Of a DNA stretch of 64,000 nucleotides, positions 16,740 through 50,603 are shown piece after piece. The number at the start of each line of letters is the position of its first letter. The stretch's first letter is position 1. The notes below the pieces were generated by a model. It made no database searches. It saw only the letters and a program-made list of their open reading frames with translations, and had not been told where the DNA came from. The DNA is from a virus: the IMG/VR virus record IMGVR_UViG_3300047509_000177, positions 27,382-91,381 of that record, one strand, 5' to 3'. The translations under genes were made by a program, and so were the position numbers.

Positions 16740-16835
16740 TGCGCCTGGGGAGAATTGAACTCCCGACCTCCTGTTTGAAAGACAGGCGCTCTTTGAGACC
16801 CCGAAGGTTCTCGTTTACCACTGAGCTACAGGCGC
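16740..16835 (-). tRNA. Atypical tRNA: anticodon UUC, Val/Lys-like body, extra hairpin in the D-loop
   Basis: GCGCCTG/CAGGCGC acceptor, A73, GCTC/GAGC D-stem, CCTGT-CTTTCAA-ACAGG anticodon arm, GGGAG-TTCAATT-CTCCC T-arm. Confidence 0.8.
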
Positions 16836-16841
16836 ATGAAG

Positions 16842-16924
16842 TGCGGGAGACAGGATTCGAACCTGCAAGCCCTTTCGGACAGACCCTCTTAAGGGGTCCG
16901 CGTCGCCAATTGCGCCACTCCCGC
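16842..16924 (-). tRNA. tRNA-Leu(UAA)
   Basis: GCGGGAG/CTCCCGC, A73, GACCC-CTTAAGA-GGGTC, long variable arm. Confidence 0.92.
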
Positions 16925-43333: not shown

Positions 43334-43474
43334 AAAGGAGTAAAAATGACTTTAGTAGGAGCTTTGGTTGTTATTGCAATAATAGTAGGAGTAATATATA
43401 TAGTGAGTAGAATCAGGTGAAATAATAATAAGAATTGGCACAAACATACATGACTCACCCACAGAACAGAGGGC

Positions 43475-43885
43475 ATGAAAGAGCGTGGAGGGCAAGTTCG
43501 CGCGGAAGTTATTCCTAACGCGAAAAGCGACACGCTCAAGCCCCGTGTTCGCAAGGCCGTACAAGCCGATTCAACTCTTTACACGGACCAGTGGAAGGGC
43601 TACCACGGCCTCGATGAGAACTTCGACCACCAGACCATCAACCACGCGGAACATTATGTTGACGGTCGAGTCCACACAAACGGAATTGAGAACTTCTGGT
43701 CACTACTAAAGAGAAGTTTGCATGGAACTTATGTATCAGTAGATCCTTCTCATCTTTTTAGATATCTTGACGAGAGAGTATTTGCTTTCAATCAAAGATA
43801 TCTCAGTGATTACGGACGTTTCGAGACTGTGCTACTGGCCGTGACCGGCCGCCGCTTGACGTACCTGGAATTGACTAGCACCTAA
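43475..43885 (+). CDS. IS1595 (ISXO2-like) transposase, C-terminal fragment
   Basis: YTD...Y...H..INH...HTNGIENFWSLLKR...HL.RYLDE; lacks the Zn ribbon, HTH and first catalytic Asp. Confidence 0.85.
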   Translation: MKERGGQVRAEVIPNAKSDTLKPRVRKAVQADSTLYTDQWKGYHGLDENFDHQTINHAEHYVDGRVHTNGIENFWSLLKRSLHGTYVSVDPSHLFRYLDERVFAFNQRYLSDYGRFETVLLAVTGRRLTYLELTST

Positions 43886-43964
43886 TTGTGCTACAGAGCG
43901 ACGTGCAGTAGCTGCTATTAACGAGCGAGCCCCGGCCGGAGGTCAGTCCGAACCGGGGCTCTAT

Positions 43965-44038
43965 GGTGGCGGTAGTTCAATTGGAAGAACTCCCGACTTA
44001 AAATCGGGATCGTGCGGGTTCGAGGCCCGTCCGCCACC
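43965..44038 (+). tRNA. Atypical tRNA: anticodon UAA, short variable loop, His-like G-1:C73 acceptor
   Basis: G-GTGGCGG/CCGCCAC-C, GTTC/GAAC D-stem, CCCGA-CTTAAAA-TCGGG, GCGGG-TTCGAGG-CCCGT. Confidence 0.85.
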
Positions 44039-44200
44039 TTTCTTTCAATCAAGAGGTTATCGAAAGAAAGAATTTTTTGGGAAAGTATCAATGATTTTCT
44101 TTGCTTCGCTGTTGCGGATGCTTTGGGTGAGTCATGTATGTTTGTGCCAAAGGATTTGCAGTCCTTTCCCTATCAATCTCGGGCATCGCCATACGCAGCT

Positions 44201-46051: not shown

Positions 46052-46338
46052 AATGAGGACTTAATGACGACAGAGCAAAACAAATATTCGTACACCGGTG
46101 TCAACCTAACCCCTACTTCGTCTGAGCATGATCAACGTCGTGCAAAGCTTCTGGAGCAGGCCCGCAGAGAAGTTCCAGCACTACGTGAACAGGTGGCAGC
46201 AGATCGAGCCGCTCTGCGTCGTATCGCTAAATCGTAAGAACGCAGCTAGGAGGGAAAGACGAAACTAACTACGAAACGCCGGGCAAACATTGTGACGTAT
46301 AGCACAAAGACACCCTTGTGCTACAACTTCGCTAGATG

Positions 46339-46422
46339 TGCGGCAGACGGGACTCGAACCCGTAATCCGTGGTGGGAACCCGGGCTCTAGCCGGGCGCGT
46401 TTGCCAGTTTCGCCACTGCCGC
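46339..46422 (-). tRNA. Leu-type tRNA body with anticodon AGA (Ser)
   Basis: GCGGCAG/CTGCCGC, A73, D-arm GCGAAACTGGCAAACGC, CCCGG-CTAGAGC-CCGGG, long variable arm. Confidence 0.8.
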
Positions 46423-46520
46423 ATGTAGTGCTCTACCCCCTCCAGAGCAGTCGAGAAATACCCCAACCACCAAGTAACGATTGATACTAGAAATCTAATG
46501 ATGCTTGTGCTACAAATATG

Positions 46521-46605
46521 TGCGGCGGACAGGATTCGAACCTGCACGGTGCGATGCACCCCGACTTGATGAGGGCCGGTGCGTCTACCATTCCGCCACC
46601 GCCGC
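46521..46605 (-). tRNA. Leu-type tRNA body with a 9-nt anticodon loop centred on CAU
   Basis: GCGGCGG/CCGCCGC, A73, GCGGAATGGTAGACGC, CCGGC-CCTCATCAA-GTCGG, V-arm GGTGC-ATC-GCACC. Confidence 0.8.
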
Positions 46606-46761
46606 GAGTCCCGGCCTGATCCGCCGGGACTCCGCGCATTCTAGCCGCCTACTTCTGACCTTCTGCTCGCTCAATCAGCTGCTATCAGGCGGTTCGGACG
46701 GAACTTCTATCCGCTGCTGATCGAGGACTTATGCACAGTGCTCGGCTAAGATCGGCTGCAC

Positions 46762-46855
46762 GGAGGGCGCTCCTAAGTGGTGTGTGGGGCCGGGCCTTCA
46801 TCCCGGTGACCCGTCTGAGACACGGCGGCGATTGGTTCGATTCCAACGCCCTCCG
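46762..46855 (+). tRNA. Allo-tRNA-like gene (8/4 fold, selC-like appearance), loop CCUUCAU
   Basis: 8-bp acceptor GGAGGGCG/CGCCCTCC, G73, 4-bp T-stem TTGG-TTCGATT-CCAA, long variable arm. Confidence 0.7.
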
Positions 46856-47001
46856 CAAGCTTCAGCCGAGCTTGTAGAACAACAGCCTATCATTAGATTA
46901 TTTGTGCGGTACGTTACAAACTATCTTTGTGCTCTATGCCACTATCTAGTTTCGTCGTTAGTTTCGTAGATGCTGATTCTGTTGATTGATATTGTCTGGT
47001 C

Positions 47002-47247
47002 GTGTCACGCGACTTCAAAGCTCTCGCCGAAGTCCTTGAAAGAAAGGCGAGCGACCGATGCCCATCCTGTGGTGGGCACCAATGGGCTGACTTCCGCGCG
47101 GTAGCTCTCCTGCAATACGTTGACGCCCACGAGCCGATAACCGAGTGCTATGGGCTCCCTGTGCTGCCCTTCGCCTGCCTCAACTGCGGCTTCGTTCGGC
47201 TGCATTCGACCCGCATCCTCGAAGACCAGTTCAAGCCCGAGGTCTAA
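47002..47247 (+). CDS. Small Zn-ribbon protein
   Basis: CPSC...CLNCG; GC-rich; flanked by direct repeats. Confidence 0.65.
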   Translation: MSRDFKALAEVLERKASDRCPSCGGHQWADFRAVALLQYVDAHEPITECYGLPVLPFACLNCGFVRLHSTRILEDQFKPEV

Positions 47248-47533
47248 GTAGACTTTGTGTTTGATATCACGTACATTCATGAACTAAATCGTTTCGTAGG
47301 TCGTTTCGTGGATGCTGAGATTTTAAAGGCTCGAATCATGGTTGGTATGCTTGTGGCTTTCCTAATAGGGCACAGGCCGGGAAGTGGAGCGGGCAGCACC
47401 CGGCCAGGAGAGCCCTTGGAAAAGGCCCTGTAGTATCTGGCCGGGTGTCCGCTTTAGCGTACATCTGTGTGGTATTACGTTTCGTAGTTAGTTTCGTCTT
47501 TCCCTCCTTTAGACCCTAAAACAGATTTTATCA

Positions 47534-49295: not shown

Positions 49296-50603
49296 TTATA
49301 CCTTAGTTTTCAATAAAGGAAACATTATAACATCTCTAATATTCTTCTTTCCCAAGAGTAGCATACAAAGACGATCTATTCCAATACCAACTCCGGCCCA
49401 AGGCAGTGCTCCCATTTCTAGAGCTTCGATGTAGTTTTGATCGTATGGGTCATATTCTCGTATATTTTCTCCAAATTCATTTGTGAAAAACTTTTTGCTT
49501 TCTGGTTCCTTTAGGCGCGTTTCCTGCTCATGTGGGTCATTCAAGTCTGATGCTCCAGAAGCAATCTCCATATCATCTATATATAGCTCCCATGCCTCTG
49601 CTCTGTTTCTATGTCTACCTTTTCCAATTGATTTTCTACTCAAGGGCCAATCAGACGATGGTAAGTCTGCATCGAAAATCATAGGATACTCATGAGGGCA
49701 TTTTATTGAACATGACACATTTCTAATTAAATCTTCAGTAAAACAAATCATATCTAGGTCAGTCTTACAACTCTCAAATATCTCTAGATTAGTGAACTCT
49801 GGGTTGTGTTCGGGACTAATTCCCTCATTTCTAAAGCACCTTGAGAAAGCATATACTCTATCGAACCCGCCAACGAGTGCGCGCTTAAGGTATAGCTCTG
49901 AGGAAATAGATAGGAAAAATTGTTGTCCAAGAGTATTGTGTTGTGTTGTAAATGGCTTCGCAGTTGCTCCACCATAGATGGGTTGGAGTATGGGAGTTTC
50001 AATCTCAACGAAGTCTCTTTCATTCAGATACTTCCTTATCTCAAATACTATTTCTGCTCTCTTCTTAAATACCTCGCGCGAATCCGCGCTGGACATCAGA
50101 TCCTGCTCGCGGTGCCTGTACTTATGCTCAGGGCTTTTCAGGCCATTTCGCTTATCGGGAGGCTCTCGTAGTGCCTTGGCTAAAAGCGTGAAATTAGAAA
50201 TTAAAAGAAGGGGCTTCCCACGCGGATTCTGGCCTAGTGCCCCTTCTACTCCGACCATATCTCCAAGATCGCATTTTATAACGCTATCAAGGACTATTTG
50301 AGATTTTGCGAAATCTAGTTTTCCTGACTCTATGGGGCCATAAATTAGTTGGATTGATCCCGTCTGGTCAAATAAGTCAAAGAATATAGTCTCTCCGTGA
50401 TGCCTTCGAGCAGATATTCTTCCTGCTATCTTACAAAAATTATCTGAAGGAACATCAACTTTTTCTCTAGTAAGGATTTCATGGAGAGTTACGGTTGATG
50501 GTCGATTTAAAACATATTGAATTGTTTCTCGGCCAGGAAAATCGCGCGGGTAGGGGTTAGAATTATTCTGTATCTTCTTTAGTCTCTCTATAGAATTACT
50601 CAC
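49296..50603 (-). CDS. lysS: Divergent class II lysyl-tRNA synthetase paralog
   Basis: OB-fold anticodon domain, EIETP..Q..GGA, ELYLKR, FRNEG..HNPEFT, GIGIDR; pocket residues altered. Confidence 0.85.
   Translation of the reverse strand: MSNSIERLKKIQNNSNPYPRDFPGRETIQYVLNRPSTVTLHEILTREKVDVPSDNFCKIAGRISARRHHGETIFFDLFDQTGSIQLIYGPIESGKLDFAKSQIVLDSVIKCDLGDMVGVEGALGQNPRGKPLLLISNFTLLAKALREPPDKRNGLKSPEHKYRHREQDLMSSADSREVFKKRAEIVFEIRKYLNERDFVEIETPILQPIYGGATAKPFTTQHNTLGQQFFLSISSELYLKRALVGGFDRVYAFSRCFRNEGISPEHNPEFTNLEIFESCKTDLDMICFTEDLIRNVSCSIKCPHEYPMIFDADLPSSDWPLSRKSIGKGRHRNRAEAWELYIDDMEIASGASDLNDPHEQETRLKEPESKKFFTNEFGENIREYDPYDQNYIEALEMGALPWAGVGIGIDRLCMLLLGKKNIRDVIMFPLLKTKV

Follow-up and report, generated by a model that had tools for sequence, protein, structure and literature searches.

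An AT-rich soil phage of about 91 kb carries, within the remnant of an IS1595 insertion sequence, a tRNA gene that joins the acceptor end of tRNA-His to the anticodon UAA of tRNA-Leu. The reading that we tentatively favor is that of an intact dual-identity tRNA, which would be charged with histidine and would cause low-level Leu-to-His mistranslation at UUA and UUG codons. Natural tRNAs in which charging identity and anticodon are in conflict are rare, and such mismatched tRNAs bear on the fixity of the genetic code, on adaptive or weaponized mistranslation, and on the supply of parts for synthetic recoding.

A G-1:C73 tRNA with a leucine anticodon

The window, by which we mean the whole stretch of 64,000 nucleotides that was analyzed, comprises bases 27382-91381 of a 91,381-bp IMG/VR virus record with a CheckV completeness of 98%. 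The G+C content of the window is 41.7%, and the phage genes include those for tail proteins, a helicase, and a DnaE-type polymerase. ARAGORN found seven tRNA genes in the window. The G-1:C73 tRNA with its flanking hairpins, and two further tRNA genes, are located as follows:

43927-43961, + strand: G+C-rich hairpin, 3 nt before G-1 (fold)
43965-44038, + strand: G-1:C73 tRNA with the anticodon UAA at 43999-44001 (ARAGORN, Rfam, fold, alignment)
44039-44078, + strand: A+T-rich hairpin followed by a T run, terminator-like, directly after C73 (sequence, fold)
16842-16924, - strand: canonical type-II tRNA-Leu(UAA) with A73 (ARAGORN; Rfam, 49.8 bits)
16740-16835, - strand: tRNA(UUC) with a hairpin of about 25 nt inserted in the D loop (Rfam, 67.7 bits)

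ARAGORN reported a 75-nt tRNA (43965-44039) with the anticodon taa and drew its acceptor helix with 8 bp. The Rfam model RF00005 aligned with 43966-44038 over its full length at 59.9 bits (gathering score 29), giving a 7-bp acceptor stem and a discriminator C at 44038. A first-pass annotation made from the sequence had claimed that an encoded G in front of GTGGCGG pairs with C73, that the variable loop is short, and that A73 is absent. All of this was confirmed: G-1 (43965) pairs with C73 (44038), the variable loop has 5 nt, and the Rfam alignment likewise places a C at position 73. The tRNA is of type I, and its gene does not encode CCA. The anticodon loop, CUUAAAA, contains U33 and A36-A37-A38, and its anticodon is UAA rather than the GUG of bacterial tRNA-His, which sets the decoding role and is a minor determinant for HisRS. 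The tRNA also keeps U8, A14, G18, G19, the T-loop bases 54-58, and C61.

The minimum-energy fold of 43920-44095 is a cloverleaf with an 8-bp helix (z = -3.8; none of 200 shuffled sequences folded as well), and the same fold draws the G+C hairpin on the 5' side and the A+T hairpin with its T run on the 3' side. A consensus terminator scan, which needs at least three G-C pairs, misses the hairpin at 44039-44078, and a consensus promoter scan found no + strand site inside the IS unit.

The phage host is probably a GC-rich, Thermoleophilia-like bacterium, because the tRNA-His match and the IS relatives described below fall in this class and because the tRNA(UUC) with the D-loop hairpin is shared by the phage and a Solirubrobacteraceae MAG (L219, 97 nt). 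The inserted hairpin looks like a lineage-typical feature rather than a defect. A related phage, G001 (IMGVR_UViG_3300043787_000063; 71% identity over an 893-aa protein), probably has one too (G001:C1:44325-44419).

The tRNA has a His body and a Leu(UAA) anticodon arm

We searched for the parents of the tRNA in the 401 genomes of the class (Thermoleophilia) of one Solirubrobacteraceae MAG. BLAST with the 74-nt gene returned 56 full-length matches with 73-79% identity; 30 of the 56 were examined, and all 30 were tRNA-His(GUG) genes. Compared region by region with the closest tRNA-His gene of the class, the phage tRNA showed the following numbers of identical positions:

Whole gene: 55/74
Acceptor stem with G-1 and C73: 16/16
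T stem: 10/10
T loop: 6/7
Anticodon loop: 1/7
Variable loop: 0/5

The 5' end had earlier been described as similar to tRNA-His, and the similarity turned out to be stronger than this, extending through the acceptor stem, the T stem, and most of the T loop. The proposed His acceptor identity likewise stands, the stem with G-1:C73 being that of real tRNA-His genes.

The 17-nt anticodon arm has a different match. It is identical to that of the type-II tRNA-Leu(UAA) of three class genomes (L298-L300), and the tRNA-His of the same three genomes has an acceptor stem identical to that of the phage tRNA. Judged from these identities, the phage tRNA is a mosaic whose acceptor and T half match tRNA-His and whose anticodon arm matches tRNA-Leu(UAA). 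It could have arisen by grafting of the arm, or by eight substitutions in a His arm that shares four of the five stem pairs.

The D arm and the variable loop have diverged, yet all secondary pairs and the tertiary pair 15:48 are retained. We aligned the phage tRNA with a second IS-borne tRNA and 15 tRNA-His genes of the class. G-1:C73 was invariant, and the phage tRNA formed all 23 specified pairs. Where it alone differs, at 11:24, 31:39, and the tertiary pair 15:48, both partners have changed and compensate each other, which argues for selection on the tRNA shape and against decay.

We further built a His covariance model from the class tRNA-His genes and compared its scores with those of the tRNAs of genome G003. 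True tRNA-His scored 99.1 bits, the IS-borne tRNA with the anticodon UGU 77.2 bits, and the phage tRNA 70.3 bits; the best of the 45 non-His tRNAs of G003 reached 67.2 bits, so that the margin over this tRNA, a tRNA-Gly, is only 3 bits. C73 occurs in one of the 46 tRNAs of G003, which is the His one. No tRNA gene of this genome encodes CCA, and several genuine class tRNA-His genes have a T right after C73.

Searches for further copies gave little. Exact searches with the 5' 20-mer matched only Gly-rich coding sequences, the 3' 22-mer had no match in IMG/VR, and the whole gene with the anticodon arm left free had none in 185,579 species genomes. No other IMG/VR gene combined the His skeleton with a first anticodon base other than G, against at least 119 genes with GUG. 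Among the matches listed for the 401 class genomes there was one His skeleton without G34, in genome G241.

The tRNA gene lies in an IS1595 remnant

The tRNA gene sits in a 716-bp remnant of an IS1595 element that has 30-nt inverted repeats at both ends:

43435-43464: left inverted repeat, 30 nt, 97% complementary to 44121-44150
43475-43885, + strand: truncated IS1595 transposase ORF, 136 aa, C-terminal part only (Pfam DDE_Tnp_IS1595)
44121-44150: right inverted repeat, 30 nt, 97% complementary to 43435-43464

The 136-aa ORF matches DDE_Tnp_IS1595 (E = 5e-30) at profile positions 43-153 of 153, and its start corresponds to an internal Met of the full-length transposase. Full-length relatives have about 309 aa, and the best of them (P0001) is 96% identical. 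The nearest transposase relatives in genomes belong to Solirubrobacteraceae, Solirubrobacterales, and Gaiellales MAGs (66-77%), followed by Acidobacteriota. The core motif of the inverted repeat is conserved in the family; in most loci examined it lies about 40-60 bp upstream of the IS1595 transposase gene. We found no target-site duplication: the 8 bp that flank the unit on its left differ from those on its right.

In this family the right repeat lies 0.9-1.8 kb past the transposase stop, and the IS1595 subgroup therefore has a cargo slot. The usual cargo is a protein gene, for example one for a trypsin-like peptidase or a DUF3800 protein. The commonest cargo (L013, L016, L017, L093, and L094) encodes a trypsin-like peptidase protein of 313-352 aa and is oriented opposite to the transposase. 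We considered whether a tRNA is a standard part of the element and rejected this, as only one of 160 loci with transposases of 52-77% identity, L091, had a tRNA in the cargo slot.

L091, from a Solirubrobacteraceae MAG, is the closest genomic copy of the element (77%). The type-I tRNA in its cargo slot (L091:2554-2628; 61.4 bits) has the anticodon GCU. Its body is 82% identical to the tRNA-Arg(UCU) of its own genome, and A20, C35, U36, and G73 are kept. With the ArgRS marks A20, C35, and U36 in place, it could insert Arg at AGC and AGU. A segment of its D stem and anticodon arm has a perfect 14-nt inverted copy 152 nt downstream (2578-2591 and 2744-2757).

A second tRNA was found in a complete IS1595 element of genome G241 (L294:1269-3612) that is more distant from the phage copy. 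This element comprises the transposase, a hairpin with a tRNA, and a 293-aa cargo ORF without a Pfam match. The tRNA (2474-2547; 62.4 bits), which lies within the inverted repeats, has G-1:C73 and the Thr anticodon UGU; its acceptor is of the His type and its lower half resembles tRNA-Thr(UGU). The hairpin lies 2 nt before the G-1 tRNA and differs in sequence from the phage hairpin. tRNA cargo in IS1595 elements is thus exceptional but recurrent.

Two viral contigs have less regular sequences near IS1595. One (L345) carries an allo-tRNA-like gene with UAU (2455-2540) upstream of an IS1595 transposase, which the tRNA-Sec model scores at 38.9 bits, below the cut-off. The other (L346) has beside IS1595 a degenerate His-acceptor tRNA-like sequence with UGC (2276-2350), which has a non-canonical T loop and is negative with Rfam.

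The syntenic site was also inspected in the related phage G001. There (G001:C1:46513-46625, that is L531:4425-4537), the hairpin found at 43927-43961 in our phage precedes another irregular tRNA of type I, which has the anticodon GGA, A73, and a single mismatched pair in the anticodon stem. Neither IS1595 repeats nor a transposase were found near this site in G001. A 26-nt leader upstream of the irregular tRNA of G001 matches 46681-46706 of the window.

Other irregular tRNAs and a synthetase in the phage

The window holds further irregular tRNA genes in a cassette at 46248-47508, which has perfect 31-nt inverted repeats at its ends, internal GTTTCGT repeats, and a G+C content of 55% against the 41.7% of the phage. 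These genes, a small ORF, and a nearby synthetase gene are:

46339-46422: Leu-like type II tRNA with the loop CUAGAGC, in the cassette
46521-46605: Leu-like type II tRNA with a 9-nt loop containing CAU, in the cassette
46762-46856: 8/4 allo-like tRNA with UUC, on the same strand as the G-1 tRNA and 2.7 kb away from it
47005-47280: small ORF, in the cassette
49296-50603, - strand: class II aminoacyl-tRNA synthetase of the Lys/Asp/Asn type, 435 aa (Pfam tRNA-synt_2, 1e-65)

The 435-aa synthetase is closest to LysRS, with a score below the NCBIfam cut-offs (376.7 vs 468 bits). One of the unusual tRNAs might be its partner. We found no HisRS gene in the 98%-complete phage record.

TTA is a leucine codon in the phage

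The phage has 495 TTA codons in 74 ORFs, or 22.7 per 1000 codons; for DNA of the class, a rough count that includes a 3-kb locus of genome G348 gave about 1 per 1000. The commonest Leu codons of the phage are those that the G-1 tRNA would misread. In alignments with G001, phage TTA codons corresponded to Leu at 138 of 195 positions, the same share as for CTT, and His was outside the eight commonest residues. A reassignment of TTA in the phage was rejected on these grounds. Since TTA stands for Leu throughout the phage proteome, any insertion of His would be mistranslation and not recoding. We also rejected a private recoding, in which an IS-borne tRNA would rescue a His or Arg codon of its own transposase, because, in the transposase genes, the codons that match the three IS-borne tRNAs fall in columns of conserved Leu, Thr, and Ser.

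Proposed function and rival explanations

In the mechanism that we propose, the tRNA would be co-transcribed with the transposase remnant, and RNase P would cleave 5' of G-1, as it does in tRNA-His, because position -1 pairs with position 73. After CCA had been put on behind C73, the host HisRS, reading mainly G-1:C73, would histidylate the tRNA. The resulting His-tRNA(UAA), with its His-tuned T stem, would compete at UUA and UUG with Leu-tRNA(UAA), whose cognate gene (16842-16924, - strand) is present in the same phage, as the first-pass annotation had stated. A low level of Leu-to-His mistranslation would be the outcome.

The steps of this mechanism differ in how probable they are. We consider it probable, by analogy, that G-1 is retained and that the host enzyme histidylates the tRNA. 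G-1:C73 is the major determinant for HisRS and can be transplanted, with the anticodon in a minor role (PMC9976931). In vitro, E. coli HisRS histidylated natural G-1 tRNAs bearing a Thr anticodon, and did so better than tRNA-His itself (PMC5389517); it is these identity rules together with the in vitro precedent that make histidylation likely. As HisRS also contacts the anticodon, charging may drop. Decoding by the ribosome, which the first-pass annotation had inferred as insertion of His at UUA, is the least certain step, and a biologically meaningful reading of UUA and UUG as His strikes us as possible, with more doubt than confidence. The identical T stem should give an EF-Tu binding appropriate for His, and the UAA loop with U33 and A36-A38 has the appearance of a proper UNN-reading loop. 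The GGU tRNAs that were charged by HisRS gave no insertion of His at ACC in E. coli (PMC5389517). An efficient inserter of His would harm its carrier phage with its 495 TTA codons.

The tRNA might instead be made, and perhaps histidylated, without taking part in decoding, as a passenger of the mobile element that is inert or acts outside translation. We are inclined to doubt this but give it real weight. Such a tRNA could serve, for example, as an RNase P/Z processing signal for the hairpin-capped 3' end of the upstream transcript or as an HisRS-binding RNA, or it could be neutral cargo. The GGU tRNAs, which are the sole natural G-1 tRNAs with a non-His anticodon to have been tested, behaved in just this way, being charged and unused in translation. 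A hairpin lies directly 5' of the tRNA in three contexts (our phage, L294, and G001), and the syntenic slot of G001 holds the same hairpin with another irregular tRNA, so that the slot is kept and the anticodon is not. Mistranslation at all the TTA codons of the phage would be costly, and the position of the codons read by IS tRNAs, at conserved columns of their own transposases, also fits a tRNA that does not decode. What speaks against it is that the anticodon loop has not drifted; with U33 and A36-A37-A38, loop and stem are exactly those of a working tRNA-Leu(UAA). Moreover, the anticodon stem, the D stem, and 15:48 were kept by compensation, which a cleavage signal alone would not need.

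An ordinary second tRNA-Leu(UAA), charged with Leu and aiding the translation of TTA codons of an AT-rich phage in a GC-rich host, would explain the origin of the anticodon arm from a real tRNA-Leu, and it would agree with the excess of TTA over host-class DNA and with a phage tRNA set that reads A-ending codons. We nevertheless hold it to be quite improbable. Position 73 of the tRNA is C and not A, G-1 is paired, the body is of type I with a variable loop of 5 nt, and the acceptor stem is that of tRNA-His, whereas the Leu(UAA) genes of the host class and of the phage are of type II; the phage also has its canonical tRNA-Leu(UAA) already. A73 is a key LeuRS determinant in bacteria, as E. coli identity studies have established, and its absence supports the earlier suggestion that the tRNA is not a substrate of the LeuRS type. 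It is very improbable that we are looking at a decaying pseudogene, a tRNA-His copy that mutates within a dead IS. The truncated transposase, the lack of a recognizable target-site duplication, and the degenerate tRNA-like sequence beside another IS1595 (L346), which fails the Rfam model, would suit such a history. However, the nineteen differences from the nearest tRNA-His break no pair, three of the changes are compensated double changes, the conserved bases and the Rfam score are those of an intact tRNA, and the loop has turned into a specific functional consensus instead of degrading. Hardly credible is a fold with eight true acceptor pairs and U 44039 as discriminator (an 8/5 fold resembling tRNA-Sec), which would be no HisRS substrate. 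The first-pass annotation had offered an 8-bp stem with U73 as an alternative, and the ARAGORN drawing agrees with it. It fails because genuine class tRNA-His genes have the identical helix in the same 3' context, many with T next and without an encoded CCA. The long variable arm, the 6-bp D stem, and the UCA anticodon that would go with such a fold are also missing.

A bolder extension of the dual-identity reading, which we regard as unlikely, is that the IS1595 elements of GC-rich Actinomycetota from soil disseminate dual-identity tRNAs that were built for the purpose and act as weapons against particular codons. If this were true, a His or Arg acceptor half would have been joined to anticodon arms that read codons seldom used by the host. 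The host, with about one TTA per 1000 codons, would barely be hit, and AT-rich invaders or rival phages, with 20 times as many, would be corrupted. On this view the phage would have captured its copy as a weapon to use against co-infecting phages, with its own canonical tRNA-Leu(UAA) as a buffer, or else the copy would be a scar left when a host element jumped into the phage genome.

Comparison with known systems

Dual-identity tRNAs are already known as a kind, from tRNAProX and from the G-1 tRNAs of irregular-tRNA polycistrons. The latter were described by Mukai et al. (2017, NAR 45:2776; PMC5389517), who found a G-1 'tRNA1' with the Thr anticodon GGU in irregular-tRNA polycistrons of soil metatranscriptomes, near allo-tRNAs, and linked these to transposable elements and toxin-antitoxin loci. 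Compared by description, 'tRNA1' and the phage tRNA are both natural tRNAs with the His acceptor mark and a sense anticodon of another amino acid. The phage tRNA differs in having the Leu anticodon UAA, a standard 7/5 fold plus G-1, parents that can be named, an IS1595 remnant as its carrier, and a location in a phage. The allo-tRNAs (8/4 and 9/3 folds; PMC5389517) are likewise irregular, with an anticodon mismatched to identity, but their variable arm is long and of the Ser type and their T stem is shortened, and the phage tRNA shows neither trait.

The tRNAProX (tRNAProA, tRNAProN, and tRNAProT) of Streptomyces and Kitasatospora, which mistranslate when expressed in E. coli (PMC10404621; PMC11415595), are actinobacterial tRNAs that likewise carry the identity elements for one amino acid and the anticodon for a different one. 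They have Pro identity, a dedicated ProRSx, A33, and A15-A48 (PMC10404621; PMC11415595), whereas the phage tRNA has His identity, no dedicated synthetase, and the canonical U33 and A15:U48. Engineered tRNA-His(CUA) amber suppressors (PMC3875453) share the design of a tRNA-His body with a foreign anticodon and work with HisRS through G-1:C73; they are laboratory constructs that read a stop codon, whereas the phage tRNA is natural and has the anticodon of a sense codon. With the Thermoleophilia tRNA-His(GUG), the phage tRNA shares the acceptor with the encoded G-1:C73, the T stem, a length of 74 nt (-1 to 73), and the lack of CCA; it differs in the exchanged pairs 11:24 and 15:48 and in having the anticodon UAA instead of GUG.

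A 2024 review of tRNA-driven mistranslation has no cases of the tRNA-His type and none from phages or transposons, and our literature search found no paper that ties IS1595 cargo to tRNAs. Both parents of the phage tRNA can be named almost base for base, and the gene travels on a defined mobile element, other copies of which hold a His/Thr mosaic or an Arg-derived tRNA with the anticodon of Ser. This raises the question whether mobile elements spread mistranslating tRNAs and, if so, whether the host, the phage, or competitors are harmed. Relative to the known dual-identity tRNAs, what is new here is the Leu(UAA) anticodon, the identification of the parents at base level, the carriage on IS1595, with two more cases from bacteria, and the location in a phage.
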